A stretch of 64,000 bases of DNA from Candidatus Eiseniibacteriota bacterium (GTDB taxonomy: Bacteria > Eisenbacteria > RBG-16-71-46 > CAIMUX01), in the NCBI GenBank assembly GCA_903844735.1, contig CAIMUX010000087.1, forward strand, positions 4,738-68,737, in the 5' to 3' direction. The translations under genes and the position numbers were made by a program. Below are positions 6,919 through 57,559 of the stretch, one piece after another (positions within the stretch are counted from its first letter, which is position 1; every line of letters begins with the position of its first letter). The notes beneath the pieces are model-generated. The model had not been told where the DNA came from. It did no database searches and was given only the letters and a program-made list of their open reading frames with translations.

Positions 6919-6943
6919 GAGAGATGCGCCTCCCCAACCATTG

Positions 6944-8044: not shown

Positions 8045-8052
8045 CGGCCGCG

Positions 8053-16821: not shown

Positions 16822-16888
16822 GGCGCGCGCGGCTTCGCCGTCCTTTGTGGCGACGCATCCCCGACTCCGAGTCCGTCGCGCTCCCGCC

Positions 16889-24754: not shown

Positions 24755-24786
24755 CGGCCGCGCCGGCGAGGCGGCCGGCCCGATAC

Positions 24787-24870: not shown

Positions 24871-25062
24871 TCGTCCCCGTACGCGAACCACCCTCGGCGG
24901 TCGGGACAACGGCTCTCACACCGCCAACCGATTTCGGGACCGAGAATGTGGCGAGAGATCACGGGGGGCCGGGGGCGGCGGGAAGGACAGGTGGATGGCC
25001 CTCGGTCCCAAGCCTGCGATTCCCATGACGCTCGCCCACCGGCCAACCATGCCGACAAACAG

Positions 25063-25473: not shown

Positions 25474-25712
25474 GGCCGACCCTTGGCTTTGGCACGCCGG
25501 ATGGCAGTGTCGGTCAATGGGCTCAGAGCCACGCGGCGTCGGAGTCGATCGACTTCGGCCAACCATGCCTTGGGATCGACGACCGGGGCGTTGGCCGCCT
25601 GTTCCAGGCATGTGATGATCTCGCTGTTGAGACTCCGGCGATGGAGCACCGCCCTGCGTTTGAGCCGGCCGAACAGCTTGTCGGGGATGCCCTTGATGGT
25701 TACGCTGGGCAT
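25470..25712 (-). CDS. vapB: Ribbon-helix-helix antitoxin VapB (Arc/CopG/FitA-like)
   Basis: 80 aa MPSVTIKGIPDKLFGRLKRRAVLHRRSLNSEIITCLEQA, typical of RHH antitoxins. Sits directly upstream of and overlapping the PIN gene. Confidence 0.7.
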   Translation of the reverse strand: MPSVTIKGIPDKLFGRLKRRAVLHRRSLNSEIITCLEQAANAPVVDPKAWLAEVDRLRRRVALSPLTDTAIRRAKAKGRP

Positions 25713-25966
25713 GATTCCTACCTCCGGTTAGGTTCCACTATGCAACCATGTTGGAACCGTAGCATGGCACCGGCGTCTGGACAAGGTCATCGAGCCCATG
25801 AGGTCATCTCCAACCGTTCCGTAGCTCTCGGCCACCGTGACCGTGCTGTTGCCCGGCTGGCCGTCGACAGGGCGTCGGACGTTGGTTCGGCGTGCGCTTC
25901 GATGAAGGACTCGGTCTGGGAGACGTAGTTGCCCCAGCCCCGGAAGAAGATCTACTGCGCCCGCGC

Positions 25967-27490: not shown

Positions 27491-27861
27491 ACCAACCTCC
27501 AACGCGCAGCACAAACTCGTCTGCGGATCAGCGACTTCATCACCCCCGGGCGCCCCTCGCCCCACTGCGAACCGCCGAACAGGACTATGACCGACCTCCG
27601 GGGGCGAATGGAAGACCCATCCCCCGACGGGGAGCGCGGCGAGAAACCACTCGCCGGGTGCATTTCGCTGGATGCACCACCAGCCCTGATGACAGGGCGA
27701 GTGTTTGGAGCGGATGATCTTCTTCGGGGAGAGTCCGTTGAGAAACGCCGCCATGCTACTCTTCCCGGGGCGGGCGAAGGGATGCGGCCCGATGAGGCGA
27801 GGGAACAGAGACACGGCCGGACGGCGCGAGCGAGCAGGGAGCCGGCACAGAGGAGGATGCG

Positions 27862-29115: not shown

Positions 29116-29735
29116 GCGGGCGCAGAAGACCACGTGCGTAATCCATCGAGTCGCCGTTCCGGAACCGCGCCAGGATTTGCCGCCACTCGCTCTCCGTCCG
29201 CTTGCGGCGGCCGTTCGACAACACCTGCATCCAGCCGTCCTCGTCGAAAGCCGAAGGAAACGAGCGCGCGGGCGCGGCTGGAGATCCCAGCCCTCGATCA
29301 GAAGGCGCTCGCGGGCCTCGTGGACCACATCGAGCTTGTCCTGGCCGAGGCAACCAGTGGACTGTGGCCTCCTGGGCCAGGTCGCCGTCGCCCTCGGAAT
29401 CCACTCGGCGAGTCCTTTCAGACCGGACACCGGTTGGTCTTCTCGCCCGACCGGTCAGGACCTAGCTGGAGACATCCCTTCTCGCCCAGGCGGGGCAGCG
29501 GCGATCGAACGAAGATCGAAGCACTCGCCCCTGCCTGGGTGAAGCGGCTATGCTACCCAGGTTCCGCTAGCCGGAGGCCGAGTCGTGCACCGATCCGCCG
29601 AGGGGGGAGGCGATACTCGGTGGTGGTCCGTTCTGCAGCACAGGATACCTTTGCGATGCCAGGCAGCTCAGTCCGGGCCGGAGGTTGGATGCTTGCCCGC
29701 TTCGCGTTCGACCGGAAGGCCAGGAAGTGAAAGTC

Positions 29736-30314
29736 ATGCCGCGTTTGATTCTTCTGGGTGGTCCCAACGGCGCGGGCAAGACGACCGCCGCGATGCGGAT
29801 TCTGCCGGGCTTTCTCTCGTTGCGCGAGTACGTGAACGCGGACACGATTGCTGCCGGGATTTCCGCGTTTGTGCCCGAATCGGTGGCCGTGGAAGCAGGG
29901 CGCGTCATGCTGCGGCGCCTGCATGAGCTGGCCGAAATGGGCGCGGATTTCGCTTTCGAGACCACCCTTGCCTCCCGGTCGTTTGCCCGATTCTTGCGGA
30001 ACCTGCAGGGGAACGGCTACGATGTGCAAGTGGTCTTCCTCTGGCTTCGGAGTGCGGATCTTGCTGTCGAGCGAGTGCACACCAGGGTTCAGGCAGGCGG
30101 GCACGAGATCCCCCAGCAGGTCGTCCGGCGCCGTTATGCCGCTGGCTGGCGCAACTTCCTGGAGCTGTATCAGCCGATTGCGGACAGTTGGCAGGTGTAC
30201 GACAACTCGGGCATGGAAGAGCGGTTGGTAGCCGAAGGGTGGAGCGGCGAGAAGACCGAGGTCCACGATCTGGAGCTCTGGTCTTTCATAGAAGAAGGAC
30301 CCACCAAGCCATGA
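29736..30314 (+). CDS. Zeta-toxin-family P-loop kinase (COG4185-like)
   Basis: ATG 29736 after GGAAGTGAAAG. Walker A LLGGPNGAGKTT with short kinase fold. The annotated 29685 start adds 17 residues with no support. Confidence 0.6.
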   Translation: MPRLILLGGPNGAGKTTAAMRILPGFLSLREYVNADTIAAGISAFVPESVAVEAGRVMLRRLHELAEMGADFAFETTLASRSFARFLRNLQGNGYDVQVVFLWLRSADLAVERVHTRVQAGGHEIPQQVVRRRYAAGWRNFLELYQPIADSWQVYDNSGMEERLVAEGWSGEKTEVHDLELWSFIEEGPTKP

Positions 30315-30490
30315 ATTACGAAGAGAAGCGGAAACAGCACGCGCAGATCCAGGCCGGGATGCACGTCGCGATCGCCGAGGCGGTCGAAGAGCACCGCCGC
30401 GCCGGGCGCAAGATCGCCATTTGGAGAAACGGCGAAGTGGTGCGAGTGACGGTCGAGGAAGCCAGGGAGCCCGATCTGCCGGCCACGTAG
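30311..30490 (+). CDS. Small (59 aa) protein translationally coupled to the zeta-family kinase; possible antitoxin/partner
   Basis: ATG overlaps the kinase stop (ATGA at 30311-30314). Sequence MNYEEKRKQHAQIQAGMHVAIAEAVEEHRRAGRKIAIWRNGEVVRVTVEEAREPDLPAT. Confidence 0.4.
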   Translation: MNYEEKRKQHAQIQAGMHVAIAEAVEEHRRAGRKIAIWRNGEVVRVTVEEAREPDLPAT

Positions 30491-30553
30491 TGGGGCCTCC
30501 ACCCCGGCCGCATCTGTTGCTTCCCCTCTCGCACCCAGACCTGACCGCGCGAG

Positions 30554-30757
30554 ATGACCCGTTCGCCGCCCGTAGAGTCACAATGGGGATACGACCGCAT
30601 CCTGGGAGCTCTCGCCAACCTCGGGCACAACATCTCGGACACGACGGTCGGCAACATCCTTCGAGAGCACGGCGCCGGTGTGAAAGCGGTCCGCCTACCC
30701 GCTCGTTCGCCCAATCTGAATTCCCACTTGGAGCGGTTCATGAGGAGTTTTCCCTGA
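30554..30757 (+). mobile_element. Internally deleted IS3/IS481-type (rve/DDE) transposase remnant
   Basis: 67 aa ORF. WGYDRILGALANLGHNISDTTVGNILREHG resembles the segment preceding the DDE core (compare PRWGYRRIHALLRREG). It is fused directly to the C-terminal rve motif RLPARSPNLNSHLERFMRSF (compare P.SPq.NG.vERf). No intact catalytic core remains. Confidence 0.5.
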
Positions 30758-31007
30758 CCCTTGGCTCAAGAGCCCCTGTGATCGGCCGGAGCTGGCCTCA
30801 TCGAATCGGCCGAAGTCCCGAATTCTCTGGATCCTAGGCTTCGCTCCAGTATTTTCCCCTTACGGGGTGACCGGTTGGAGCAGCCGGTCACGATGCCGCT
30901 TCTGTTGCTCCATGTAGTGCTCGATGAGCCTTTCCGGATCGTGCGCGCACTCCGCCGAGATTCTCTCGCGGAGAACGCCGAGAAGTGCGCAGTTTCTGGC
31001 GAAGACG

Positions 31008-31095
31008 CGAGAAGCCCCGAGGCATCGCCCCGGGGCTCGCGTTGACTGCCTGGCCGACCAAACCTGGTGGGCCAGCCATAGTGGCTCCCCGGACC
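31008..31095. repeat. Copy B of the hairpin-containing repeat element
   Basis: gagaagccccgaggcatcgccccggggctcgcgttgactgcctggccgaccaaacctggtgggccagccatagtggctccccgg is about 97% identical to 56094-56181 over the first roughly 85 nt. Its 3' end agtggctccccgg matches the tRNA-Asn 3' end region at 57483-57495. Confidence 0.65.
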
Positions 31096-31559
31096 CGCCT
31101 CCATACGAACCGCTCGGCGCGATTCGAGCAAGTGCTCTCAGGCCGCTAACCTAATCCGGGACAGACGATTCGGACAGAGACCATCGAGGGCCGCAGAGAA
31201 CGACCCACCATTGACCAATTCATCTGTTGGCGGGCATCAGTCCCGCCGGAGCTGGGGTTCCTCTGCCTTAGGAGCATCTCTGATCGGCCGCCCCGCGATG
31301 GAAACGAGCGGGGCCGTGGCCTCCGGATCCCCCTGGCCTGGGCAAGTGCGCCCTCTGCTGAAGAAGGAAGCGGACCAAAGTCCACGCGAATGCCTGAACA
31401 TAACCCGCTGCATTTCCGCCAATTCAGCCCGGCCGACTATTGGCACACTACGAGGTAGGTGACCATTCCCTTCGCCATCCAGCCATCCGGAACGAAGGCG
31501 TCCGACGTCCTGTCAGACCACAGGGCAACACGCGCGGGCCCACGCCGCGTGCCCGTGCA

Positions 31560-40931: not shown

Positions 40932-43838
40932 CTACTCTCCCCCCTCGAACTCCGAATCCCGGAACCCAAGCGTCCTCGCATTCTCTCGAATCGTCCGCTG
41001 GAGATTCTCGTCAAAGCCGGCCGCCGACTCGGCATGGATCTCGACCGTGATCTGCACGTTCACTCCGGGCCGCTCGGTGAAGCGGATCACGAGTTCATCC
41101 ACGAGGTCAGCGAACCTCTTCTTGGCCTGGACGGCATCCAGACTGATGGTCCCGTAGAAGCGTCGCTGTACCGGTGCCTTGGCACCTCCGCCCGTGCGGC
41201 CCGCGCCTCCGCCGGGGCCGAGGCCCCCTCCGCCAGTCCCGCGACCAGTGCCACCGGGGGGGTCCGCGATGACCCCTTCGCCGCCCCCGCCCCCGACCGT
41301 CCCGCCGGGCTTACCCGTGGATGCCGCCGCCTCCGCCGCCGCATACTCCCGCGCCACCCTCGGCTCGATGATCAGCAGCGAGCCATCGAACACCGGCGCG
41401 GGTAGCTTCCCAAAGCTGAACCCCGTGTACTTCCCCGCCTCCTTGCCATACGCAAACCCAAAGAAGTCCGTACTCCCCGCCCCCGCCACCAGCGCCCGCC
41501 GAAACACCTCCTCGTCCTTCAGCCGCGGCAGATACAGGTACTGGCATGTCTTCTGCCACACCTCCAGCGCCCCGACCTCGACGACCTCCGCCTTCCAGAA
41601 CCAGGTCGTCAGCATCTTGGCGAGGTGAATTGGCGCCCACTCACTGATCACGAGCTCGTTCTCTCTGAGCACCAGCGCCAGTTCCTTCCCGAGGTCAGGA
41701 CTGCTGGGGTTGAGCGGGAACGCCTCCCACTTGATCTCGGAGACACCGCCGACTCCCGTGCCCTCGAATGCGGGTGTCCCCCCGGAGGCGGCCTTGACCC
41801 CTTTGGGAGGCAGTGCTTCCTGCATCGGCGCGAGCAGCCACCTGTAGACCTCGCGAACCATCCGGGTCAGTGTTTCGCGGGCCTGCGCCAACGCGGCCTC
41901 GGCGTTCCTTGCCATCAGGTTGTCCAGCACGATCCGGTTGTCCCGGTAGTCATTCACGATCGACTGCCACGCCAGCAGCGTCCGGACCAGATCCTTGAGT
42001 CGGGACACACTGTCGTAATCAGCCGCCAGGAACAGAAGCCGGTTCTGCTTCTGTCGCGGCTGTTCGCCCCGGTGTTTCAGGATCTCCGCGGCGCCTTGAA
42101 TCGCAAGGCCGTGGCCGGCGCGGTTGTAGGCTGCCTCGGTCGGCAAGACCACGAGTCGGAGCGACCAATCATCTGGGATATCCGCGGCGGGGGTGAACAC
42201 ATGGACACCACCGAACAAGCCGGGGGTGAGACTCTTCTGAAGACGCTCCCGGATGACGGGAAGGATGTCCTCCCGGTCCTGGAAGCGCTTCTTCCGCTCC
42301 TCCATTTCGCGGCGGAGGTTCGGCCGGGTGTCGAACCAGTATCGGTCGTTGGCCTGGTTGAGATAGTGCAGCCGGTCGACGAGCCGGTTGAGTGCGTCCT
42401 CGTAGAGGCTGAGCTGCTGGTCGGGCTGCAAGCAGCCAAGCAGGACTTGCCCCACCTCCAGGCCGCGCACTCTTTGTCCCGTGGTCGTGGGGGCACTCCC
42501 GAGGAAGATCGCTCGCGCCGCCCGCCGGCACCCCTGCACGCTCCCCAGGCGCGGTTCCTTGTTTTCGATCTCGGTGGTCTCGGCCCGCTCGCCGTCGATG
42601 TCGCTCTCCACCACCGGGTCCCAGCCCGGCGGCAGGTAGTAGATCACCTCGTTGCGCACGTCGGCGTCGTAGAGGGGCAGGTTGGCCGGGAGGATCAGCA
42701 GGTCGTTGTTCCCATCCTTCCAGAGCCGGTAGATCACCTTGGCCATGAGCTTCAGGACACCGCGTGTGCGCTGGAACGACTCGAGCGTCGACCAGTCCTC
42801 GTACAACCGCCGAAACACTTCTGGGTGGATCGGATAGGCGTCGCGCATCCGAGACGTGTACCGGCTGTCCTGGGTCTCCTGGGGCAGGCTGGGGTTGGCG
42901 ACGTAGAGCTCCGCGAAGGCGCGACAGACGGCATCCGCGGCCGCGGCATCGTTCACCTTCGTGAAGAGACGGCGGCGGACGATCTCGAACGCCTCCTCGG
43001 TTCCGACCGGCTTCCAGAGCGCCTGGACGCGGCCGAAGTAATGCTCCAGGGCGTTCAGTGCTCCCTGTCCGCGTTGGCTTCCGGCCTCGCGGTCCGACTC
43101 GGGAAGTGAGGCAAGCAGCACCGCGCTCGGAACCATCTTCAGCGCTTCGGTAAGCGCCTGGATGAACGAGAGGTTCGAGTCGTAGGTCCCGCCCGCGTAC
43201 GACTTCCCCTCCTCGAATTGCCGGATGTAGGCGACAAGTTCGTCCACGAGGACGACGCACGGGGCGTGGCCGCCGAGCAGCCGGGCCAGGACATCCTTGC
43301 CAGGCGACGTGCCGCTCTCGTCGGCCTCGCGGACCAGGGCGTACCCAGACTCGCCCCCGAGCTGCCAAGCCAGCTCTCCCCAGAGTGTGCGCACGGTGAG
43401 CCCGTCGCGCTTGCGGGGCATGTTCGGGGCCAACTGGTTGCCATCGAGGACGGCGATCGTGGCCCGCGGCAGCTCGGTGATCTTCGCGGCGTCGAGGATG
43501 GGCGGGATGCCGGCAAGGTCGGCGGAACTTGCTGTCCCCTTCGCCAGGTGGTAGACCGCCAGCATGGTGTGCGTCTTGCCGCCGCCGAAGGCGGTCTGAA
43601 GCTGGATCACCGGGTCCCCGCCGCGTCCGGCGATCCGCTTCACGACCGAGTCGAGGAGGAGTTTCATCCCCTCGGTGATGAAGGTGCGCTGGTAGAAGAG
43701 CACCGGGTCTTGGTACTCGGGTGTGGCGGTGCCGTCGTGGACGCGCGAGAGGTCGGCGGCGAACTCGGCTTGCTGGAAGGTGCCCTTCAGGACATCCTCG
43801 TGGGGGATGGCGACTTCGCGCCAGGGTTTCAGGGTCAT
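40932..43838 (-). CDS. DUF499-family P-loop ATPase (defence system component; BrxC/PglY-related)
   Basis: Internal Met [36 protein letters not shown] matches my recollection of conserved DUF499 N-termini. Walker [19 protein letters not shown]. About 969 aa from 43838, and the ATG overlaps the stop of the upstream gene (43835). The 160-aa G/R-rich N-terminal extension in the six-frame ORF is rejected. Confidence 0.65.
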
Positions 43839-45391
43839 GGGTTGGATCCCTTTCGTTGAACTGCGGGGTGCCTCGTCTGGCTGGCCAAGGTCTTCTGACC
43901 CTTCTTCGTCAGGCGGTACTTCTGCAGGCGGCTGTTGGGCTTGTCGGGGACCGTGAACTCGACACGTGCGCCTGTCAGGAGCGTCTTCAGCACAACCTTG
44001 AGCTGTCCAGAGACCCGTTCCTGCCCCAGTTGCTTCGAGATGACCGCGATGGGAAGGGCACCGTTGCTCAACAGAGCCAGAACGCGGTCTTCCAGTGACT
44101 GGTACTGGACTGGTACTGGACTGGTACTGGACTCCGGCTGTGTCTCCGGCCGTGACCCTACCCCCGACTCCACCTTTGCCCCTACCTCGGCACCAGCCGT
44201 CTCCCCCACGCGCACCCGGAAGGTCACCACCGCCGCCCCGGTGATCTCCTCGAACTTCGGCTGAGCGATCCCCGCGTCGCGGCACATTTCGACCACGCGG
44301 TTCGTCCCGCGCCCCCACTTCTCGATGAGGCCGGTTCGATGGAAGACGTCCGCAATCAGTGGGTTCCGCTGGACCGACAGGTGGTTCTGCGTCAGGGATC
44401 GGGGCGTGATGCCCTTGGGAAAACCTCCCGCGCTCCAGACCTCCACGCGATCGTCGAAGATCGCCAGCGAAACCGCGCCCCCCGCGATGGAGTAGTCGCG
44501 GTGGATGAGGGCGTTGACCAGGATCTCCCGCATGGCGTCCGGTGGGATGAGCAGCGTTTCCACCCGCCTCATTTGGCCCGGGACGATCCTCGCGGGCATC
44601 GGGAAATGGCGCTGGCAGAAGATCTCTGCTTCCTCCAAGAGCTTGAATGCCGGGCCGCGCACCTGGCGCTGGTCAAGGAACTCGGTCTTGGTCGTCCCCC
44701 GGAAGCGGGCCATGCGAAGCTCGCACTGCGGGTAGTCCGGCATGAACGTCTTGCCAAAGAGGACCACCGCGCCCTGGAGGATGCGGCCATCCGTGCGGAG
44801 ACCCAGCCGGGTCAGCACATCGGGAAGGCTCCGGCCCACGGGTCCGACCAGACGTCCGACCGAGCGGGCGATGTCCACGATGCGGAAGACCTCATCGCGG
44901 TCGATGCCCTTGATGGCCATCCCCTCGGCGGGCTCGTTTTCCCAGCGCCGCTTCGTGTGGGCGCGGGCGAGGAGGAGATTCTCGTACTTCTCCTGGGACA
45001 TCTTGCGCGTGGTGCTGGCTACCCGTTCATACGGGCGACCATCGAAGGTGAACGGAGCCGAATCCAGGGTCTTCGTGGTGCGAAGAATCAGAATCTCCCG
45101 TCCGTTCTCCAACGACAGCCGTTCTATCGGGAGATCCACCGGCGGCTCGAAGCGCTCAAACGCCTGCGCGATATCGCGGAGCGTCTGATCCGAGACCTGC
45201 TGCCCCTCGGGCTGACCGTCGGGACGGACCCCGAAGAGCACCATCCCGCCCGAGCCGTTCAGGAAGGCGCAGATGGTCTGCAAGCCCTCGCGCAGTTCGC
45301 CGGTCGAGCGCTTGATCTCCAGGTTCGGACCCTCTCCCGGTTTCAGGAGCCGGGCGAGGTCGTTCTCACTCGCGGGGATCTTCGGGATCAT
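43835..45391 (-). CDS. AlbA_2 (Schlafen-like 'divergent AAA') + HATPase_c_4 + C-terminal wHTH protein, paralog 1 (embedded in defence locus)
   Basis: 518 aa. N-terminal [44 protein letters not shown] (AlbA_2 family), then a GHKL-like region ([14 protein letters not shown]...GRGTNRV). The linker is encoded by a 12-nt x3 tandem repeat ([11 protein letters not shown]). The C-terminal HTH is diverged from paralog 2. Confidence 0.6.
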
Positions 45392-45486: not shown

Positions 45487-46971
45487 TCACGGGACCACCT
45501 CCCAGCGTCCGCCCTTGTCGGGCCCGATTCGGCGGACTCGATTCTGCCCCTGAAGTGTCCTGAGATTGCGTTCAATCGTCCTGGCACTGACGCCGATAGC
45601 CGCGGCCAGATCGGCGATGGTGGCATCCGGGTGGTCGGCCAGCATGGAGAGAATGCGGCCCGGGGTCTTCTTGGCCGTTTTCTCCGACATTTCCTCCGAC
45701 GTTTTCTCCGACGTTTTCTCCGACCTCTTCTCCCGACCCTCCTCTGGTAGGTTCCCGGGGCGCGCCGGAACGATCGGGGCCCGAAACGTCACCACGACCC
45801 AACCTTCGCGCTCCTCGAACAGCGGCGGGGGAACGCCGTGAGCCAGGCACTCCGCGATCACCCGGTTCGTACCACGCCCCCAAACCTCCACCGCCCCTGT
45901 CCGGTGAAAGGCTTCGGCGATCAGCGGATTGCGAAGTTCGGATCCGTGCGACGTCGATAGCTGTTCCACCGTCACGCCGGTCGGCAGGCGGCCGTAGCTG
46001 CGGATTTCGACCCGGTCGTCAAAGACGACGATGGCGACATGACCTCCGTAGTAGGAATAGTCCCGGTGCATGACGGCGTTGAGCAGGATCTCCCGCAGGG
46101 CGTTCGGAGGAACCGGAAAGCGATCTTCCCGGAAGATCTGGCCCTCGGGAAAACGCGCCCCCAGAGGGAGCGTTCGCTCGAGGAAAGCCATGCCCTCGCG
46201 GACCATGGCGAAGGCATGGATGTGTTCCTGGCGATTGTCCACGATCTCGCCGGTGATCTCCGTGCCACGGAAACGCCCCATCTTCAGGTGGCACTGGGGA
46301 CAGTCCGACAGGAAGCTCTTCCCGTAGAGAACAAGGGCGGCCTGCGTGAGAACCCCGCCCACCCGCAATCCCAGCCGGTCCAAGATGTCGCCCGCGTCTC
46401 TGCTTGTGTCTGCGGAGATCCGGCTCTGCTGAACGGCCAGGTCCCGAGTGCGCAGAATCTCCTCGCGGTCCAAGTCGTCGAGCGTCAGCCCCTCCGAAGG
46501 GAGGTTTTCCCACCGTCGTTTGGCGTGTCCCCGCTCCAGGAGAAGCCGTTCATACGTCTCCTGTGACATCTTGCGCGTGGTGCTGGCGATCCGCTCATAG
46601 GGACGGCCATCGAAGGTGAACGGAACCGAATTCGAAGCCCCTGCAACGCGGAGAATCAGGACCTCCCGTCCGTTCTTCAGAGACAACCGCTCTATCGGGA
46701 GACTCACCGGCGGCTCGAACCGTTCGAGCGCCTGCGCGATGTCGCGCAGCGTCTGATCGGAAACCTGCTGTCCCTCGGGCTGACCATCGGGACGGACTCC
46801 GAAGAGCACGATCCCGCCCAGACCGTTCAGAAACGCACAGATCGTCTGCAGGCCCTCGCGTAACTCGCCCGTCGAGCGCTTGATCTCCAGGCTGGGCCCC
46901 TCTCCCGGTTTCAGGAGCAGGGCGAGCTCCTCCTCGCTCGCGGGGGATCTCGGGATCAAGGCAACCTCCAC
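45487..46971 (-). CDS. AlbA_2 (Schlafen-like) + HATPase_c_4 + wHTH protein, paralog 2
   Basis: 494 aa. The first roughly 300 aa are near-identical to paralog 1 at protein and DNA level. The linker is encoded by a 15-nt tandem repeat (EKRSEKTSEKTSEEMSEKTAKK). C-terminal wHTH (ADLAAAIGVSARTIERNLRTLQ). Confidence 0.6.
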   Translation of the reverse strand: MEVALIPRSPASEEELALLLKPGEGPSLEIKRSTGELREGLQTICAFLNGLGGIVLFGVRPDGQPEGQQVSDQTLRDIAQALERFEPPVSLPIERLSLKNGREVLILRVAGASNSVPFTFDGRPYERIASTTRKMSQETYERLLLERGHAKRRWENLPSEGLTLDDLDREEILRTRDLAVQQSRISADTSRDAGDILDRLGLRVGGVLTQAALVLYGKSFLSDCPQCHLKMGRFRGTEITGEIVDNRQEHIHAFAMVREGMAFLERTLPLGARFPEGQIFREDRFPVPPNALREILLNAVMHRDYSYYGGHVAIVVFDDRVEIRSYGRLPTGVTVEQLSTSHGSELRNPLIAEAFHRTGAVEVWGRGTNRVIAECLAHGVPPPLFEEREGWVVVTFRAPIVPARPGNLPEEGREKRSEKTSEKTSEEMSEKTAKKTPGRILSMLADHPDATIADLAAAIGVSARTIERNLRTLQGQNRVRRIGPDKGGRWEVVP

Positions 46972-46989: not shown

Positions 46990-49881
46990 TCAGATATCCA
47001 GATCTGTCTGCGTCCCCACCTGCCCCGCCCGATGCGAAGCCGCCTCAATCGCCGCCCATGTCGTAATCAGCTCGTTGCACGCCCGCGCATCCTCCGCCCA
47101 CCCCTTGCGCTCACATAGCGTATACAGCCGATACGCCAACTGCCGAATCGGCTCCATCCGCCCCGGCATCCGCGCCACCAGCGCCCCCGCCGCCATCTCT
47201 CCACCGGAGGTCAGCGCCCGCAGAAGGTGGTGCATCGCCTCCCAGATCGGCGTGCGCTGATCGTGCTCCGGCGACCAGTCGGTCGGGTACTCGGCGGGCC
47301 GCAACAGACGCACGGAACCCCGGCCCGAGGCGACGACCCCGGCTTGTACAACCCCTTCGACGCTGGTCCCCTTGGCGCGGGCGAGCACGTCGGCCTCGCC
47401 GAACTTTCCCTCGTCCCAGGCGTGCTCCTCGAACCAGTGCAGGCAGAACCTCGTGTCGGCGTCGAAGTCGTCCTCCGAGAAGAAGCGGTTTATGAGCTGC
47501 AGTGCGGTGCGCACGCTCATCGGCGTACCGTCGGCCTCCAGGACCGCGGTGTACTTCGAGAAGACGGCCATGCCCGGGCCGATGATCGCCTGGGAGAGGT
47601 CCACCGGCGCCACCGGCGAGTACTCGGCCCCGCGCGTCATGTCATCGAGGGCCTCAGGGAGAGCGGCATTGAGCTCGCGAAGGAACTCCCGCCGGGAGAC
47701 CGAAGGGGCGGTAGCCTCGCGACGGCGGCAGACGATGATGATGCTGGAGGCAAGGACGTTGGTGCCCGAGCCAATCATGCGGTTGCCTAGTTCTGTCCGC
47801 ATCGGCCAAGTGCCGCTTACGGAGAAACCAGCGCGAATCACCGCTTCGAGGAAGGTTTCCCAGCCAGTACTGGCAGTCCCTTCGGTGCATTCGGTTTCCG
47901 ATTGCTTGAACGCGTAGTAGATCGTGACCGGAAACGCTCGATGGGCGTGCTCGGCCAGGCGGTGCATCGCCTGCGTCATGCCGTCGAGGAAGAAGGTTTC
48001 GGCCTTCTCCTTGCTGCCGTGGCGATAGGGCGTGGCTACCAGCTCCTCGGCCTTGGGTACCACCAGCGTGGCGAAGAGGTCCGGAAAGACGGGCTTCAAC
48101 GACCGGCGCAGCCAGACGTAGAAGAAGTCCGACAGGTCGGCGTAGCCGATGTTGTCGTAGTAGGGTGGGTCGGTAGAGATGACCGAGCCATCGGTGATTG
48201 TCTGGGACTGCGCGTCTGCCTGAACCGCATATCCCGCCAGCGTAGCAGGCAACTGGTCTACCACACGCATCATGTTCTTGAGAGAGACGAGCGGATCACC
48301 GGCCATGTCACCGAAGGCATTGGCCTCGGAGTAGTCCCAAACCATCGGCAGCGCTTGCCGTCCGAATGTTGCGATGGACTGATCCATAGTGGTCTTCCAG
48401 CGACAAAGTGATGACTGGGCATCGGACATCTTGCTGATCGCCATCCCGAGATACACCCCCACCGCATCCGAGTAAGCAGTGGCGCCGGTGCCGCCAGCGT
48501 CGAGACTCTTCCCGTCATCGGCGAGGCCAGCGGCAAGGGCGTCGTGCCTCACACGCTCGCGCGCTTCCGAGACCAGATCGGCGAAGGTCGTCAGCGCCAC
48601 GAGCTGACGTGGGGTGAAGAGGTCGGCAAACGTCATTAGACCGTAGTTCGGCGTCTTGAAGTCACGCGGGTTCACGGGCAAAGCGACTTCCGGTCTCCAC
48701 TCCGGCTTCGCCGTGCGCGCCACCGCCTCCATCTCCAAGGTTGGCGGCAGATAGATCCGCCCGCGTCCGCCCTCTGCGACGATGGCCATGAGTCGTGCGC
48801 CCATTTGGCCAGACTTGCCCGCCTCGCGGATGTGATCGTAGGGCACCGGGACACCCGACATTAGGCAACGGAAGGCGGCGCGCTTGCCAGCCGTGGTGCC
48901 GAGCTTCGCAGCCTCGGCGTCCTTCGGGCTGCCCACCTTCACTGTGAAGCGGTAGCCGCCGCCGCCGACTACTGGCTCGACATACGTTTCCTTGCCCGCC
49001 TTCGTGGAGAGCATGAAAGTGGAGACAAGCGGCACGTCGATCTCCGAGTACGCTGGGTTGGGACTCTTCACAGTCCGCGCCCAGAGCCACGCGATGACGT
49101 TGAGCTTCTGGCCAACCAGCGGTTTCAGATCCGGCCGCGGATTGCCCGGATCGCGGACCATCTCCGCGGTAATCGCGACCTTCGGGTACAGGTGGCCGAT
49201 CCGCTTCTCGGCCTCGCCCCACATGAAACCGCCGTAGTACCGCACATCCTCTGCCAAACCCTGCGCGCCGCGCCAGTTCCTCGCGACAAGTGATTTCTCA
49301 CTACGGGCCGCTGGGTTCACCGGCCGTCTCCCGGCGAACTTCGGCGGGATCTCGATCATCGCCTTGTTGATCAGCACTGCCACCGGGTTCAGGTCGCTGG
49401 CGTGGGCTTCCAGCCCCAGCCGCTGCGCCTCCAGCGGCAGCGCACCTCCTCCCGCGAACGGATCGTGGAACGCCGGAAGGTGGTCCGGATCGAACAGCGT
49501 AGCGGCTTGCGGATGGTCGCGGTTCAGGTGGCAGGTCTCCCGCCAGCTCCGGCGGATCTCCGCGCGGGCTTCCTCCAGCACCTCCTCGTTCGTAGTGTTC
49601 TCCCAAAGCACGAGCTTGCGGATGATTCCGAAAAGCCGTTCCCGCTCGCTAGCGGCCTCCTTCTTGTTGACTCCGCGGCCCAGACCACGTTCGTAGCCAG
49701 GGTCGTTCACCATCTGCGCGAAGATCACGGCGCGAGCCGCAGCGAGGGGCCGCCGCGCCCACCAGAGGTGCAGCGTCGAAGGATGCCCGTGACGGATCGA
49801 CTTTTCCTTCGCAGCAGCGACATTGATGTCATCCAGCGGCAGGGCGACCTCGATGAGCTTCTTGGGGCACTTGACGGTCAT
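46990..49881 (-). CDS. DUF1156-domain DNA methyltransferase (DPPY-type N6-adenine/N4-cytosine)
   Basis: Internal Met [52 protein letters not shown], with [11 protein letters not shown] recalled as DUF1156. AdoMet motif [13 protein letters not shown] and catalytic [21 protein letters not shown]. The start ATG overlaps the stop of the CBS-HEPN gene (49878-49881). Confidence 0.7.
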
Positions 49882-50723
49882 GGATTCCTTTCTCGCTGGG
49901 ACGACTCTGCCCGCGCGAGCAGTTCGTCGCGCGTCCCGCACTCCGACTTCAGAATGTCGAACAGGCTGATCCACTTCTCCGCCGCCAGCACTCGGGCGAT
50001 GCACGCATCAAAACCGAAGTTGTTCGCATGAGCCAGGCCGTTTCTCAACTTCTCGATGCCGACTAGCTCCCGCTTGAACCCCGTCACTTGCTCTCTGCCC
50101 CATAGTGCCAGGCGGCCGACGACCTTGCGCTTGTCGCAGAACTCCGACGCCTCTATGAGATCTACATCCTCGGAATTAGCTCCCAGCTTCTCCCAACGCT
50201 CCACAAGATCACTTTCGCGTTTCTTAGTAAGAGTCGATAACCACTTCTTGCTTGGCGATGGATACACGAGCCGCATCACGTCTGCCATCTGCATTTCCAG
50301 GTGCGTGATCACGGCAAACGCCAGGAGGCGCACGGGGAGCTTCTGCAAGTCACTTCGGGTTACGATTCCACATGCACCCTGGCCAGTGTGCACTAACGCG
50401 TACGGAGTGTTTCCGGCTTCACGAAGGTAGGTGATTAGAGGCGTCTCCGCAGCGACCAAGCGAACTTCACGAAACGCCTTCATCTGTGAACCTGCGTCGC
50501 CGTCGTCGCTCGTGGTCTTCAGATGCAGCACACCTACAATCTTACGGCCACGCTTCACCGGAACATGGTCGATTACCTGCGGAGACATACTTCGGCGAAC
50601 CTCTCCAACCAGATCGTCGGCCTTGCAGGTCACGAGACCAAATAACGCAATGTGGCGGACATGGAGACCGGTTTCAAGCCCTCTGAGCGTCTCCTCACAC
50701 ACGCTGCTACTTGCCGCCCTCAT
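49878..50723 (-). CDS. CBS-pair + HEPN-domain protein (embedded in defence locus)
   Basis: ATG 50723 is preceded by AGGAGG at -7. Two CBS-like units ([20 protein letters not shown]; [20 protein letters not shown]). The C-terminal [10 protein letters not shown] fits the HEPN R-x4-H motif. Confidence 0.55.
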
Positions 50724-50797
50724 GACACAGCCTCCTATTCATCAACAAGCATCGGTCGGCATTCTCCGGACAAGCCCGTGGACCGGTGCTGCCCGCT

Positions 50798-51280
50798 TCA
50801 TTCGTCATCATCAGGGTCAGGTCTTTCCAGGTCGATCATGAATCCCTTCGACACATCCTGGGCGATGATCGCACCCGCCACGTCGCCGATCCGAGGCGGC
50901 GCGGCCGCATCCGGGTACTCTGCAAGGATCCTGGCATGGAGAGCGTCCGCCCCGGCCCGATCCAAGCTCAGAAAGTACCCGGCGCCCATGCACATGGGAC
51001 AGATGGCATACGAGTTATCGGCCGGCTGATCCAGGAGACCGTTCCCCTTGCAGTAGAAACACCTCGTGCGGCACTCCGCATACAGACGGTCAGCAAGGGG
51101 GCGATGAGGCCCGACAGGCCGGAGGCCATAGATATTCTGGTAGACGGCCATGGACTCGAGTCGATCGTACTGCCACCCCACGTACTCGCCCGGCCTGCCA
51201 CACGTCGAACACAATTCCGACGTGGTCAGAATCTCTCCGTCTTCGGCACAGCACGTGTACCGCCACCTCTTCATCGGCAT
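50798..51280 (-). CDS. Cys-rich zinc-ribbon protein (embedded in defence locus)
   Basis: 160 aa with paired CxxC motifs (CSTC, C-x3-C-x2-C in [18 protein letters not shown]). Its start overlaps the helicase gene end by 10 nt. Confidence 0.5.
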
Positions 51281-54200
51281 CGGTAACCCTCCGCCCGCCC
51301 GAGCAGCTCATCCAGATCCAAGTTGATGCTGGTCACCGCCCAATCCGGCTCCTGCGTAAACGGCCGGCGCACATAGAACGGCCCCTCGCACCGCTCCTCG
51401 TCAACCAGCACGATCGCTAACAGAAACTTCTCCGCCTGATTGAGCCCGTAGATGATCTCATTGCGCGACACCGTGATCGTCGTCTGTCCTTTGGCCCGTC
51501 CCTTGACCTCGAGATGCCGACACTCCGCCAGCCGCCCCTCTGTCGCCCTCAACGTGCTCGTCACGTCCCACCCGCACTTCTGCGCCGAGACATCCACCAC
51601 CTCGTGTCCGAGGGCGCGTTCAGCGGCCATCACCGTCTCCATGGCGAGCTGCTCGATCCGCGCGCGGGCGAGCGCATCGACGGCCCAGCGCGTGTCGCAG
51701 CGGCGCTGGGCCAGAAGCCCGGCCGGGATGACGAGCGCGCCACCCGCGACCACCGGCGTGGCCGAGATGACGTGGCGCATCGCCTGCAGCTCCTTCGTCC
51801 GCGACTCCAGCCGCACGGTCAGCTCGTCGATCGTCCGACGGGCGTTCTCCAGCGACAGGCGCACGTCGCGCCCGGCGGCCAGGTCGTCCTTCAGCTTGAT
51901 ATACCGGTCGGAGCACGTGTTGATCTCGCGGACCAGCCGCTCGTGGACGGCGGCCAGGGTCTTGTCCACGTGCCGCTCGCGCCGTCCGCGCACTTCGTCG
52001 AAGTGGTCCGGCACGAGGTGGGCCGAGGCGTGGGACAGCGCCACCTGCTCTAAGTCCCGGGTGATCCAGGGCGCCTCGAGGATGTCCTCCACCGATCGCA
52101 GGTCAAACGCGCCGATCGGTTCCAGATCAAGATGCGGCGCCCAGCCGGCGTCGATCGAGTTCCCCTCGGCGTCGATCGCCACGAACTGCATCCGCCGCGA
52201 AACCTCCCGCGACGGGTCGTGCCCTTCTTTCACGGAGTGATCGAGGATGAACATCACCCGCGGCACGACACCCGGGTCGTGGGGGTCCACCAGTACCGCC
52301 CCCTGCTTGAGCTTGTTGCGGTGTTGCTCGAGGGCGAGGTCGGTGACCGCATGCATCAGGGGGTGGCCGGGGTGGAGCAGCTCCGCCCGTGGAGCCCCCG
52401 CCCGATCGAGGAGCCGCACATACTCCTTCTCGAAGCAGACTCGCTCGTACCGGCGCAAGACCGGGTTGAGGCTGCCCCGGTCGCGGCCGGTGATCTGCCG
52501 GTCCCGCTCGCGGATCACGGCCGGGACGTGGGTGATCTCCCAGCGACCGGTCTCCCGGGGACGCAGCTCGCCTCCCAGGCCCTGGAACACCTTGGCAAAG
52601 AACGAGCGGATGAAGAACGGCTGGAGCTTGCGGGCCTCGGCCTTCTCCATCTCCTCCTTGATCGCGAAGAGCCGTTCTTCGTCGATCACCTCGTCGCAAA
52701 GGGCGTTGCGGTGGATGATCGCCCGGAGGTGCTCGGTGTCGAGGACCCCTTCCACCCGGCGCAGGAGCCGGGCGCGGATCTCGGGATCGTCGCCGTAGCG
52801 GACCGCCTCGATCAGGAGTTCGCGCAGGCTCTTCTCCTCGAAGATCTCGCCGAGGATGTCGAAGACCCGGCCGCCGAGCGCCTGACGCTCAACCTCCAGC
52901 TTGTCGAAGAGCCGCTGGAAGACATCTCCCTCCCGCGTCTCGTTGGCCACGAGATTCCATAGGTGGCAGACCTCGGTCTGGCCGATGCGGTGGATGCGGC
53001 CGAACCGCTGCTCCAGCCGGTTGGGGTTCCACGGCAAGTCATAGTTGACCATCAGATTGGCGTTCTGGAGGTTCACGCCCTCGCCCGCGGCGTCGGTGGC
53101 CACGAGGATGCGTGCGGCCGGGTCGTTGCGGAAGATCTCCTGAACCTTGCGCCGCTCCTCGCGCTTCACGCCGCCGTGGATGGTGACGATCGCTTCCGGT
53201 GTGCCGAGCAGTCCGCCGATCTTCTCCTCGAGGTAGTGGATGGTGTCGCGGTGCTCGGAGAAGATGATTAGCTTCCGCTGCCGCCCTTCGGCGTCGCGCA
53301 TCTGTGGGGTGTTCTGGAGCAGCCGCGACAGCTCCTCCCACTTGCGGTCCTGACCGCAGTGGACGAGCACCCGGGCCTGCTCCTCCAGGTGTTCCAGGAT
53401 GAGGATCTCCGCCTCCAGCTCCTGGATCGTCTCGGCGGCGGTGGCGTCGTCCACCAGCGCCGACTCGATCGTCTCCTGCTCCTCGGCGTTCAGGTCATCC
53501 GTGTCGTCGGGTACCGACCACTGCGGCATCTGTGCTAAGACGCTGTCGCCCCGCCGGCCCAGCTTCTCCTCCTCGACCTTCCGCTTGAGCCGGTGGTGGC
53601 GGCGGCGGAGCGACTGGTAGATTGCCTCGGGACTTGAGGCCAGGCGGCGCTGCAGCGAGGTCAGCGCGAAGCCGACCGACCCCTTCCGCTTGCCGTCCGC
53701 CATCTGGTCGACCTTCTTCCACTCCTCCTTCACGTACCCGGTCACCGCCTGGTAGAGCGCGGCTTCGAGGTCGGAGAGCTTGTAGTTGACGGTGTAGGCC
53801 CGCCGCTCCGGGAACAGCGGCGTCCCATCGAACCGCAGCATCTCTTCCTTGACCATCCGCCGCATCAGGTCGCTGACGTCCACCTTGTGCGCCCCGTCCC
53901 TCGGCTTGCCGTAGAAGCGGTCTGTGTCGAGCAGCGACAGGAAGAGCTGGAAGTCCTCCTCCTTGCCGTTGTGCGGCGTCGCGGTCATGAGCAGCAGGTG
54001 GCGGGTGGTCGAGCCGAGCAACTCCCCCAGGTGAAAGCGCTGGGTCTTGTTGATCTTGTTGCCGTAGTAGGTGGCAGCCAGCTTGTGCGCCTCGTCCACG
54101 ACCACGAGATCCCAGCGCGTCTGGGCCAGCTTCTCGTGCAGGTCCTCGTTCCGCGAGAGCTGGTCCAAGCGGGCGATCACCAGCTCGTGATCGTCGAACG

Positions 54201-54783
54201 GGTTGCCCGTGCGGGACTGCTCGACCTGCTCCCGCGTGAAGACCAAAAACGAGAGGCCGAACTTCTCATACATCTCGTCCTGCCACTGCTCGACCAAGCT
54301 GCCGGGGGCCACGATCAACACCCGCCGGGCGTCCGCCCGCATGATCAGCTCGCGGATGTAGAGGCCCGCCATGATCGTCTTGCCGGCGCCGGGGTCGTCC
54401 GCCAGGACCAGCCGCAGCGGTTGTCGGGGCAGCATTGTCTCGTAGACGGCCGTGATCTGGTGGGGCAGCGGCTCCACGTTCGAGGTGTGGATCGCCATCA
54501 TCGGGTCGAAGAGGTGGGCCAGGTTGATCCGGTAGGCCTCGGCGGCGAGCTTGAACTCCTCGCCGGGGGCGTCGAAGGCCCAGGGGCGTCCGGCCTCGGC
54601 CAGGGAGAGGTTGGGCTCGTCGGTGCGGAAGAGCATGCGTTCGAGGAGGCGACCGTCGGCGGTCTTGTAGTAGACCGTCAGGGCGTCGGGGCCGACGGGT
54701 TCGGTCGTGACGACCCGGACCACTAAGTTGGGCTCGATGCCCGTCACGGCGGCGTTCTTGCGGATGTCTTCGAGTTTCAGCAT
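51271..54783 (-). CDS. SNF2-family helicase with C-terminal PD-(D/E)xK-like (DUF3883-like) domain
   Basis: 1170 aa with SNF2_N motifs ([14 protein letters not shown]-like VVVDEAHKL), Helicase_C ([45 protein letters not shown]), and C-terminal [13 protein letters not shown]...CRHLEVKGR resembling a restriction-endonuclease-like fold. Confidence 0.75.
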
Positions 54784-55278
54784 CCGGGGTCGGGCTCTTG
54801 GGTGGTCAGGGGGCCTCCTTCGGTTTCGGGGTCAGCCGGATCCGGGCTGGCCGCGTGCGTCGATCGTTGGGGGATCGTAGGGGATCCTTGGCTGCCGCTC
54901 TAGTGCCGGTTCTTGGCGGTGGACCGGAAACGCGCTGACATCATGCGGGAGGGGGTACGACAGGCGCTGACGGCCCCTCCGAAAACTGCTGGCGCTGGGC
55001 GCGTCATCATCCTCCCTTAGCGGCCACGTCGCTGCGACCATATCGCACAACCTAGTCACCTGGAATGCTGCCATCCGATGGATACGGATGGTCAGCCCGG
55101 CAAGAGCGACCCTGCGGACGCTGCTCTCGCCCGCCACCCTCCCGTGCGAAGCCGCGCGACGACCCGGTCCGCCGCTCAGACTCAAAAACCCGCCGCGCAG
55201 CCCCTCCGGCGATGCCGGTGAGTGCGGGGAGATCTCGGGCGAGCCGGGAGCATGATCGGCGAAAGGGCGGATCGTTTC

Positions 55279-55830
55279 GTGCACCTGCCAGTACGGAAAT
55301 TTACACTGTGAAATGCGATTCAGCATGAAGCGATGCCGAGTCCCCAAAGCCGGCCGCAGCGGAACAAAGACCAGTCTGACGATCTGCACCGGCGGGCGCA
55401 CCAGTGCAGACGGGAGTTCGGAAACCGGCCCGGGTGCGTGCACGATGGCGCGCACCGGTTCAAGAAGTCATCCGACCCTCTGCGAAATGGCGCGAACCGG
55501 TACGGAAATCCGCCCGAGGCTTTGCACAAATGCACCCACCGGTACAAAGATCCGTCGGTCCTCCGCACGATTGCAAACGCCGGTACAAAAAGGCGGCGGG
55601 CCTCCGGCTCGAATGCTTCTACCGGTGCGAAACGTCGCCCGACCCTCCGCACAAATGCGCGAGCCGGTAGAAAACTCGTCCGCTCCTGTGCACAAATGCG
55701 CCCGCCAGTACCAAAAGCTGTCCGACCCTCCGCACGATCGCTTCCCTCATTGCAGAAAGTCGCCCGACCCTCCGCGCGATCACTTCCGTCAGTGAAGAAA
55801 CCCGACCGACCCCGCGCGCTATCCCATTTC
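55279..55830. repeat. Array of about 12-13 degenerate 41-42 bp tandem repeats
   Basis: Units such as gcacaaatgcacccaccggtacaaagatccgtcggtcctcc / gcacaaatgcgcgagccggtagaaaactcgtccgctcctgt / gcacaaatgcgcccgccagtaccaaaagctgtccgaccctcc, with consensus about GCACAAATGCGCNNACCGGTACAAAANNNGTCCGACCCTCC. Open in several frames but with no RBS or start, and no unique spacers, so not CRISPR. Confidence 0.7.
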
Positions 55831-56093
55831 ACTTTTTGAATCTCCACCCGAGCCGGGTCCAGGACGCAACGGGTCTTCCTCCCGCTCGGACCGCCTGCTG
55901 TCAGGCGGAGCCTGCTTCTATGCCGTTCACTGTGAACGGGCCTCTGGCGCTCTCTCCCCGGCAGGCACGAGAGAGAGCCCAAACAGACAAGACCGGGACG
56001 CATCCGGACGCGGTCGTGCTCTCTGCCGAGTAAATCCTTGGATGGTGTCGATGGTGGCGAGCGCGGAAAAGCCCGCGATTACCGGTCGAATAG

Positions 56094-56181
56094 CACGAAA
56101 CCCCGAGGCATCGCCCCGGGGCTCGCGTTGACTGCCTGGCCGACCAAACCTGGTGGGCCAGCCATAGTGGCTCCCCGGGCA
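56094..56181. repeat. Copy C of the hairpin-containing repeat element, with a 3' end identical to the tRNA-Asn 3' end (att-like)
   Basis: cacgaaaccccgaggcatcgccccggggctcgcgttgactgcctggccgaccaaacctggtgggccagccatagtggctccccgggca. The last 16-17 nt (agtggctccccgggca, 56166-56181) are identical to 57483-57498 (reverse complement of the tRNA-Asn 3' end plus 2 flanking nt). Confidence 0.65.
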
Positions 56182-56502
56182 ATACCGTTCTCGAACCGTC
56201 CGGGCGTTCGTGGCAGCCCTCGTTGCGGCCTAACTGATTAGGGATCAATATGGTAAGTCTCACGCTTTGGCGATGACGCCTCCGGTACAGGGCGCGAGAG
56301 ACTGGTTCGCAACCGATCGCGCTCGGCTGACTTCGCGCACACAACCCCGTCCGGGGCGGAAACAGACCGAAGATCCACGGCACGGCTGCTCATCGCTAAC
56401 CGTGCATGCTGTAGTTCAGGACGGAGCAGCTCATGCCACCCTGCGGTCCACCGTGATAGACTAATAGATGCTGCCCCTGGGGGCGCAGGATTGGAGGCAC
56501 AG

Positions 56503-57177
56503 ATGCGATACGCACTTACGCTCAGTTTGGGCGCGCTGCTCCTGGCTGCCGGACCCGCCGATGCCGGCTTCCAGGAGAAGGGCTACATTCCCGGTTCCAT
56601 GCCGGAGAGCCCGAACCTCCCCAGCCCGCCGGTCATGGAGATGAACGGGGATTTCCTGAGCCCTGAGGTGGTAGTCGTCAACCCCCACGACGGCCAGATG
56701 GAAGTTGGAATGGTCGAGTTGGGATCGAGCCAGATCAGTTGGATTCACGTGATGAACTGGCCCGAGCCGCCGGATCGCATCTACTACCTCGACGTGGACG
56801 ATGATGGACTGCTGGACGCAATCATCTCGGCCACGTGCGGCGTGCTCATCGTCGGGTGGTCAGACGAAGCAAGCGCACTTGAGCCAGATGCCGGAGGAGC
56901 GGTGCGGCTCTCGGCCACGGTACGTTCCAACCCCGCCCATGACCAGTGCCAGGTCGCGTTCTCGAACTCTCGCTCCGGACCCGTCTCTGTGGTGCTCTTC
57001 GACTCCTCCGGGCGCCGCATTCGCGAGATCCTGTCCGGGTCTATGCCGCCCGGCTTCTACAGCCCCACCTGGGACGGCCGGGACGACTCCGGAACCGAGG
57101 TTTCCTCCGGGGTCTACTTCGCCAAGATCACGACATCCGAGGGGGAGCAGACGGCGAAGGTGGTGCTAACCAGATGA
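56503..57177 (+). CDS. Small secreted protein with T9SS-type C-terminal sorting domain
   Basis: Signal MRYALTLSLGALLLAAGPADA. The C-terminus VVLFDSSGRRIREILSGSMPPGFYSPTWDGRDDSGTEVSSGVYFAKI...VVLTR fits the Por secretion C-terminal domain pattern and is shared with the M14 peptidase CTD. Confidence 0.6.
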   Translation: MRYALTLSLGALLLAAGPADAGFQEKGYIPGSMPESPNLPSPPVMEMNGDFLSPEVVVVNPHDGQMEVGMVELGSSQISWIHVMNWPEPPDRIYYLDVDDDGLLDAIISATCGVLIVGWSDEASALEPDAGGAVRLSATVRSNPAHDQCQVAFSNSRSGPVSVVLFDSSGRRIREILSGSMPPGFYSPTWDGRDDSGTEVSSGVYFAKITTSEGEQTAKVVLTR

Positions 57178-57484
57178 GGTCGTGTCGTGGTGGGCGTATT
57201 CGTGCCGCCGAGGCGGGGCGCCGCTGGGACCAGAGCTGTATGCTGCGAGAGTGATGTTGAGGAGAGAATCGGACGGTCCCCAGGCGGCTCCTCTGGCCGC
57301 GGGGGGAAGACCCGTGTTTCCCACCGGACCCCCCGGTCGCCCGGTTTCGAACCAGAGATCGCACACGGCCGATGAGAGCCGCGCGAGAATCCCTGCAGAA
57401 GCCGCACACGAAGAAGCCCCGAGAACTCTCGCTCTCAGGGTTCTCCGCTAACAGGCAAATCGCTGAAAGGACGCGAGCTAAGAG

Positions 57485-57559
57485 TGGCTCCCCGGGCAGG
57501 ACTTGAACCTGCAACCCTGCGGTTAACAGCCGCATGCTCTACCATTGAGCTACCGAGGA
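57485..57559 (-). tRNA. tRNA-Asn (anticodon GUU), CCA encoded
   Basis: Reverse complement TCCTCGGTAGCTCAATGGTAGAGCATGCGGCTGTTAACCGCAGGGTTGCAGGTTCAAGTCCTGCCCGGGGAGCCA folds as a 75-nt cloverleaf with 7-bp acceptor stem, 4-bp D-stem, anticodon loop CTGTTAA and GTTCAAGT T-loop. Confidence 0.9.

Follow-up and report, generated by a model that had tools for sequence, protein, structure and literature searches.

Repeat units downstream of tRNA-Asn as probable recombination junctions of tandem, integrase-less islands in an Eisenbacterial genome

Direct repeats of 16-17 bp from the 3′ end of tRNA-Asn are classic for tyrosine-integrase islands, among them the Yersinia high-pathogenicity island type, which carries a ~17-bp repeat of the tRNA-Asn 3′ end and a P4-like integrase next to the tRNA. 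Islands that are flanked by att sites need not encode their own recombinase, as seen for pseudo-SCC elements, which are devoid of ccr genes. CIMEs and tandem accretion involve att-flanked islands that have neither integrase nor transfer genes, arrays that grow by successive integration events at one site, and attP-like inner junctions (PMC5704250, PMC6323972). The closest precedent for the locus described here is provided by the ssrA islands of Dehalococcoides, which form tandem arrays downstream of a single tRNA-like gene and are each bounded by a ~20-bp repeat of the 3′ end of that gene (PMC3146451). Fifteen of the 31 Dehalococcoides islands have no integration module and were read as cis-mobilizable or accreted, and the integrase of these elements is a ~540-aa serine recombinase that adjoins attL on the reverse strand (PMC3146451).

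The whole stretch of 64,000 nucleotides analysed here (termed the window) belongs to an Eisenbacteria-like lineage, and its L17 protein is 77-88% identical to those of Candidatus Eisenbacteria MAGs. It shares with Dehalococcoides the tandem islands after one gene, the repeats of the 3′ end of this gene and islands that lack an integrase. However, the target is tRNA-Asn instead of tmRNA, the host belongs to a different, Eisenbacteria-like phylum, the integration module is found in none of the islands seen, and two of the inserts are single-gene elements of 1.3 and 2.7 kb. The islands of the window are also candidate counterparts of CIMEs and pseudo-SCC elements in being att-flanked, integrase-less and arrayed; unlike for CIMEs, no complete autonomous partner element was seen. 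Similarly, a repeat of the tRNA-Asn 3′ end bounds the island as in tyrosine-integrase islands at asn tRNA genes, but no P4-like integrase adjoins the tRNA in the window. We propose that the repeat units described below are very probably the recombination junctions of tandem, integrase-less islands that were inserted successively at the 3′ end of tRNA-Asn by site-specific recombination.

The only tRNA gene found in the window by ARAGORN and Rfam is the proposed integration target, tRNA-Asn(GTT), at 57485-57559 on the minus strand (Rfam tRNA, 70 bits). Its last 14 nt together with 2 further nt make up the first core repeat, TGCCCGGGGAGCCACT (57483-57498, minus strand), an exact 16-mer that is present exactly twice in the window, here and at 56166-56181. 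As only ~3e-5 such occurrences are expected, chance cannot plausibly account for two exact copies of the 16-mer within 64 kb. An earlier note on this DNA had described three copies of a hairpin element, A at 24787-24870, B at 31008-31095 and C at 56094-56181, which end in the tRNA-Asn 3′ end plus 2 nt. The three copies were confirmed at these coordinates and are co-oriented, all of them on the tRNA (minus) strand and downstream of tRNA-Asn, and the match to the tRNA end is complete in copy C (16/16). Most core nucleotides are retained in copy B and copy A is degenerate, as had been claimed (14/16 and 11/16, respectively, the latter counted from the alignment); core identity thus falls with distance from the tRNA. 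The proposed size of ~90 nt has to be revised, since on the minus strand the homology runs 80-100 nt further upstream of the 16-mer, giving a unit of ~175 nt in longer alignments and in a profile of the units. The units extend over 24787-24965 (A), 31008-31185 (B) and 56094-56262 (C), and the profile built from the three recovers 24782-24962, 31003-31184 and 56088-56256.

Each unit is a composite which, on the minus strand, consists of a variable distal arm, a core corresponding to the tRNA 3′ end and a conserved arm termed F. The distal arm of each unit possesses GGTTCG exactly 13 nt before (C)GGGRAGCCA, and arm F is composed of hairpin 1 (CUGGCC.ACCA...UGGU.GGCCAG), GUCAACGCGAG, a GC hairpin (CCCCGGGGC...GCCUCGGGG) and UUUCGUG, in this order. 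In unit C, the distal arm of P type (56182-56262, minus strand), which is assigned to island 1, has its GGTTCG at 56192-56197, 13 nt before the core as checked by regular expression; it is followed by the core (56166-56181, minus strand) and by arm F (56094-56165, minus strand), in which hairpin 1 lies at 56136-56161, the GC terminator-like hairpin at 56101-56121 and the U-rich tail at 56094-56100. Unit B, also on the minus strand, has a P-type arm at 31096-31185 (GGTTCG at 31106-31111), a core at 31080-31095 and a hairpin and terminator arm at 31008-31079. In unit A, on the same strand, the corresponding parts lie at 24874-24965 (GGTTCG at 24884-24889), 24858-24873 and 24787-24857; unit A is the oldest and most decayed of the three.

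The decisive comparison is with L040, a metagenome contig of 71 kb that encodes a GHL10 protein 79% identical to that of the window and retains the same gene order of rplQ, GHL10, M14 peptidase and tRNA-Asn. In L040, the 3′ end of tRNA-Asn joins arm F directly, and is followed by the same spacer, the 42-nt repeat array and HmaA. Alignment by blastn showed that L040 15467-15721 corresponds to window 56181-55928 and L040 16697-21227 to window 55096-50570, while arm F of unit C matches L040 15481-15560 with 82% identity. The L040 tRNA is therefore joined directly to window sequence from 56181 downwards, which makes 56182-57482 a 1.3-kb insertion. This insert of 1317 bp is bounded by the 16-nt direct repeats and consists of a proximal arm termed X, one FlgD_ig/T9SS gene, which is missing between tRNA-Asn and the hairpin flank in L040, and the distal arm. 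Judged by this alignment, unit C is an attR-type junction composed of the distal arm of the insert, the core and the old trailer of the tRNA. The assignment of the units as attL/attR-type direct repeats of the tRNA-Asn 3′ end, made in the earlier note, is thus upheld, directly for C by the L040 comparison and by analogy for B and A.

Arm X, which would be the proximal arm of island 1 and now serves as the trailer and terminator of the tRNA (57291-57482, minus strand), was recognized by homology to two further loci, L007 and L005. In L007 it directly follows the tRNA (19342-19542), as in the window, and in L005 it follows a distal junction (15998-16189). Arm X contains a hairpin at 57417-57440 followed by CTTCTTCG, has a fold z-score of -3.6 and is called terminator-like by a terminator scan. 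It is noncoding over ~200 nt and conserved at 72-77% in three genomes, well past the terminator and including a GGGTCCGGnGGGAAA...CCCACCGCGGCC stretch; such sequence conservation suggests a function beyond termination, for example as a recombinase-binding arm or a small RNA.

The L005 locus reveals the order of events. Downstream of its tRNA lie another terminator arm (Y), a single Ser/Thr-kinase gene (a 2.7-kb insert) and then a junction, in which a distal arm homologous to that of unit C (15939-15982, with GGTTCG-N13-core) is immediately followed by arm X. Past arm X, an IS110 element and an RCC1/FlgD_ig gene precede a second junction, GGTTCA-N13-TCGGGGAGCCA, which is flanked by an X-like hairpin and terminator. 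L005 thus has two further insertions nested at the same tRNA, which indicates that new inserts enter at the tRNA and older ones are pushed outward. Insertion polymorphism between the tRNA and the distal repeat is hence seen twice, in L040 for unit C and in L005 compared to L007 and the window for the kinase insert. The idea of serial accretion with the newest island beside the tRNA is therefore borne out for C and by the nesting in L005, and extends to B and A by analogy. The IS110-family transposase of L005 (DEDD_Tnp_IS110 and Transposase_20 domains; 16119-17558) sits just past arm X. A role for IS110 and a bridge RNA was considered and rejected, as tblastn found no trace of this transposase in the whole window and arm X is present in genomes without the IS, which identifies IS110 as an independent insertion in L005.

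By virtue of their shared architecture, junctions B and A would have arisen in the same way as C. The search for an empty site of unit A through amidohydrolase homologues found relatives of 95-96% identity with unrelated neighbours and no tRNA-Asn nearby, and for unit B the sole usable contig with a DUF3857/transglutaminase homologue stops 275 nt past the gene. All same-species contigs from other metagenomes show the arrangement of the window, with no presence/absence polymorphism among them. Several independent assemblies of the same species from other metagenomes (L026, L027 and L028) break exactly at units A and B. Breaks of this kind are expected for ~80-nt repeats and make short-read binning and assembly of the hot spot unreliable. 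Units B and C do not differ at any position across 78 nt of core and arm F (31015-31092 and 56101-56178), and their upstream distal arms diverge despite this identity. By contrast, the orthologue of arm F in L040 is 82% identical, so that an additional event is needed to explain the identity of B and C, which is likely the product of gene conversion between direct repeats 25 kb apart.

According to the proposed history, an incoming element would carry an attP-like site composed of a distal arm (in which 13 nt separate GGTTCG from the core), a core that is a 13-16-nt copy of the tRNA 3′ end, and a proximal arm from which the tRNA gains a new hairpin and terminator. Integration would rebuild the tRNA with the proximal arm of the new element next to it, and would move the old trailer to the far end of the insert, where it would be preceded by the new distal arm and a copy of the core. 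The resulting unit would thus combine the distal arm of the newer island, the core, and either the proximal arm of the older island or the original trailer. Proceeding away from the tRNA, one encounters island 1 (1.3 kb, FlgD_ig) followed by unit C, then island 2 (25 kb, Hma) followed by unit B, and finally island 3 (6 kb, with toxin-antitoxin genes and hydrolases) followed by unit A, the newest island adjoining the tRNA. The recombinase presumably acts in trans.

The hairpins of the units raise the question of whether these might instead be dispersed small repeats of REP or MITE type, or an independent small RNA gene with a tRNA-like 3′ motif. The earlier note had likewise suggested a structured RNA, terminator or sRNA, which holds in a trivial sense only: the pair of hairpins once formed the trailer and probable terminator of tRNA-Asn, and in L040 it is still in place. 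The arm F hairpin is very stable, with a fold z-score of -4.8; in L040 it follows tRNA-Asn, and its tail is just UUUCGUG. Owing to this short T-run, a simple terminator scan calls X but not F. A stable GC hairpin and a U-rich tail make up every arm that adjoins a tRNA, namely F in L040, X in the window, Y in L005 and the flank in L051, which suggests that each element brings a putative replacement terminator. The predicted hairpins are strong (z-scores of -3 to -5), there are three co-oriented copies of which B and C are identical over 78 nt, and unit C is divergent from the FlgD_ig gene, so that a promoter of its own is conceivable; all this would suit a repeat or RNA gene. However, the hairpin half of the unit is a plain tRNA-Asn trailer in L040, and the two halves have separate histories, as the distal arm in L005 occurs with a different right arm. 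Moreover, a compensatory change that had been claimed for copy A turned out to be one-sided, converting G:U to G:C on the minus strand and an A.C mismatch to G:C on the plus strand, which suggests that it is on the minus (tRNA) strand that the hairpin is of importance. Copy A also breaks pairing in hairpin 1 without compensation. For covariation analysis there are too few independent copies, and these contain one-sided changes only, with no genuine double-sided covariation.

Searches beyond the units agree with this assessment. Rfam applied to the window and to units B and C, at gathering and at permissive thresholds, returned tRNA only, the best matches of the units being to unrelated families with E > 0.2. 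The unit profile finds tRNA-Asn-linked sites only, in the window and 0.6 Mb of fetched loci, and no copies away from tRNA-Asn were seen in the loci or in scans of the collections. The exact hairpin-1 pattern has no match in the genome collection and a single one in the metagenome collection, neither of which contains the source species; the single match lies inside a flavin reductase gene and was dismissed as chance. We therefore regard a dispersed repeat or an independent RNA gene as very improbable.

The tRNA-like character of the core admits yet another explanation, namely that the units are decayed duplicates of tRNA-Asn genes with the same terminator and not integration products. Tandem tRNA-Asn genes are common in bacteria, which fits this idea, and GGTTCG does resemble a T-loop, with the core representing the acceptor 3′ strand and CCA. 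Nevertheless, the arms upstream of GGTTCG have no similarity to a tRNA body, and neither ARAGORN nor Rfam detects a pseudo-tRNA. All five arms have a spacing of 13 nt and not 8 nt, a uniformity not expected of independent decay, and L040 and L005 display insertion polymorphism exactly at the core. Decayed tRNA duplicates are for these reasons scarcely credible as the source of the units, and we retain junctions formed by site-specific recombination.

No integrase of the tyrosine, serine or DDE type was detected by Pfam among the likely coding ORFs of the window that were tested. Queries with viral serine recombinases (tblastn) returned nothing in the whole window, including decayed genes beside the units, nor in any Eisenbacterial locus. 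The sites themselves provide some indication of the enzyme. The five distal arms share little besides GGTTCR at N13, and the T-loop of the tRNA has GGTTCA at N8. Serine integrases recognize a zinc-ribbon-domain motif that is shifted 5 bp inward in attB relative to attP (PMC3783163), and this 5-bp rule is matched in the left half-site only, by N13 in the five arms versus N8 in the tRNA. The Eisenbacterial distal arms thus have an attP-type left half-site, in which GGTTCG lies 5 bp further out in the element than in the tRNA half-site, resembling the sites of large serine integrases (A118/LI, Bxb1 and phiC31 class; Rutherford et al. 2013, PMC3783163).

A scan of viral contigs with GGTTCG-N13-CCGGGGAGCCA returned four matches, three of which overlap the 3′ ends of large serine recombinase genes, and at each of these three sites a 49-bp palindrome that ends in CGAACC has the motif as its left half. 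Two of the three recombinase genes share just 26% identity with the third, and the reading frame of the motif differs. The control patterns N12, N14 and GGTTCA-N13 gave 0, 2 and 4 matches, none of which (0/6) is near a serine recombinase gene. Scanning with CCGGGGAGCCA-N13-CGAACC recovered the same sites and two proviruses, both of which have a real tRNA-Asn (N8), then N13-CGAACC, and then a convergent serine recombinase gene, placed as in the Dehalococcoides islands. The spacings at the viral sites are therefore 13/13 in attP and 8/13 in attL (L030 2513-2561, L031 4720-4768, L033 1896-1944; proviruses L060 984-1078 and L061 14049-14142). These viral attP and provirus sites establish that serine integrases targeting exactly the tRNA-Asn core exist. 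As a side observation, phage large serine integrases of at least two distant lineages have an attP that overlaps the 3′ end of their own gene and targets the tRNA-Asn 3′ end; in those phages, integration would replace the last ~20 to 40 integrase codons by tRNA-derived sequence.

The right half of the Eisenbacterial sites differs from those of known large serine integrases in having no inverted motif: arms X, Y and F, read by eye, contain no CGAACC at N13 or N8, so that the assignment to a serine integrase depends on one half-site. In addition, no linked gene of this kind is present, since a cognate large serine recombinase gene is encoded at the viral sites and at none of the sites in the window or the Eisenbacterial loci. 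On balance, a large serine integrase is the leading candidate for the recombinase, with roughly even odds of being correct. A P4-type tyrosine integrase, the kind of enzyme behind most islands at tRNA 3′ ends, would make the ~175-nt unit a long attP with arm-type sites. It would account for the 16-17-bp repeat of tRNA-Asn, which fits the classic tyrosine-integrase islands, for conserved sequence that extends well past the ~50 bp that a serine integrase needs, and for right arms that are asymmetric with the left arms. Tandem arrays, attP-like inner junctions and integrase-less members have moreover been described in tyrosine systems (PMC5704250, PMC6323972). On the other hand, it is not obvious what part a tyrosine system would assign to the invariant GGTTCR-N13 of five otherwise divergent arms, a spacing that exceeds that of the tRNA by exactly 5 bp. 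Independent viral matches of the motif sit at serine recombinase genes, and no tyrosine integrase was found in the window either. A tyrosine integrase is thus possible but doubtful.

The cargo enclosed by the units is typical of islands and comprises a complete Hma system, VapC and a zeta toxin; all three islands are flanked by units, and neither integrase nor conjugation domains were found in the window by Pfam and PADLOC. Island 1 contains a small secreted protein with a FlgD_ig/T9SS sorting tail (56503-57177, plus strand; Pfam). Island 2 (~25 kb, 31186-56093, minus strand; Pfam and PADLOC), whose proximal 5.6 kb are shared with L040 at up to 92% identity, contains the 42-nt repeat array, the Hma system, two Schlafen/AlbA_2 genes, lipoprotein-like genes and a DUF3857/transglutaminase pair. 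The Hma defence system is complete (PADLOC, E = 0), with HmaA at 51271-54783, HmaB at 46990-50004 and HmaC at 40932-44318. Between HmaB and HmaC sit two paralogous Schlafen/AlbA_2-HATPase_c_4 genes (43835-45391 and 45487-46971), which share a 300-nt direct repeat of 85% identity. As the HmaC ORF overlaps the first of them by ~480 nt, the true HmaC start is probably near 43838. The HmaA region (window 50570-55096 against L040 16697-21227) is 92% identical at the DNA level, compared to 79-86% for the adjacent core genes rplQ-GHL10-M14; this excess in the alignment suggests that either the island was exchanged more recently or constraint is unusually strong.

In the 1.3-kb noncoding stretch between arm F and HmaA, a 41-42-nt unit, roughly GTGCGGAGGGTCGGRCGA..TTT..TACCGG...GCGCATTT, is repeated in tandem at 55422-55823 (minus strand) in about ten degenerate copies. 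The array is kept at 74-82% in L040 (15880-16180), gene callers put conflicting ORFs across it, and it might serve the Hma locus as an iteron-like or regulatory array. Island 3 (~6 kb, 24966-31007, unstranded) encodes a zeta-toxin-like kinase, two alpha/beta hydrolases and a VapC(PIN)/RHH pair (Pfam; gene calls of L026 and L027). Base composition does not mark the islands in the window, with a GC content of 0.61-0.70 inside them and 0.63-0.68 in their flanks. Separately from the islands, the first 11 kb (1-11000) have a lower GC content (0.60-0.62 versus 0.64-0.70 elsewhere) and encode a caspase-like (Peptidase_C14) protein of 990 aa, TPR/SLH proteins, a DUF4384 protein and an SLT transglycosylase.

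Altogether, the locus is a real but ordinary island hot spot, with no new RNA or new mechanism, as the insertion of islands at tRNA ends is a well-known route of bacterial gene gain. Its only unusual traits are that none of the islands seen has an integrase and that two are single-gene elements. The 13-versus-8-nt spacing offers a cheap signature that may reveal serine-integrase attP/attB half-sites at tRNA genes without an integrase gene, and a by-product of its use is a set of phage serine integrases targeting tRNA-Asn. The exact junction sequences can be searched for in reads to find excision products and used to identify the responsible integrase. A bolder reading, which we consider unlikely, is that tRNA-Asn in this Eisenbacteria-like lineage acts as an integron-like capture site, where a large serine integrase with its gene elsewhere would act in trans to insert cassettes and islands with only an attP-like site, the array growing at the tRNA end and the left half-site alone setting specificity. 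If this were true, very small single-gene cassettes (1.3 and 2.7 kb) and larger defence islands would each bring their own tRNA 3′ end and terminator. For the organism itself, the analysis locates a hot spot of gene acquisition in an uncultured phylum and puts its layers in order of age, which comprise a FlgD_ig gene, an Hma system, and toxin-antitoxin and hydrolase genes.
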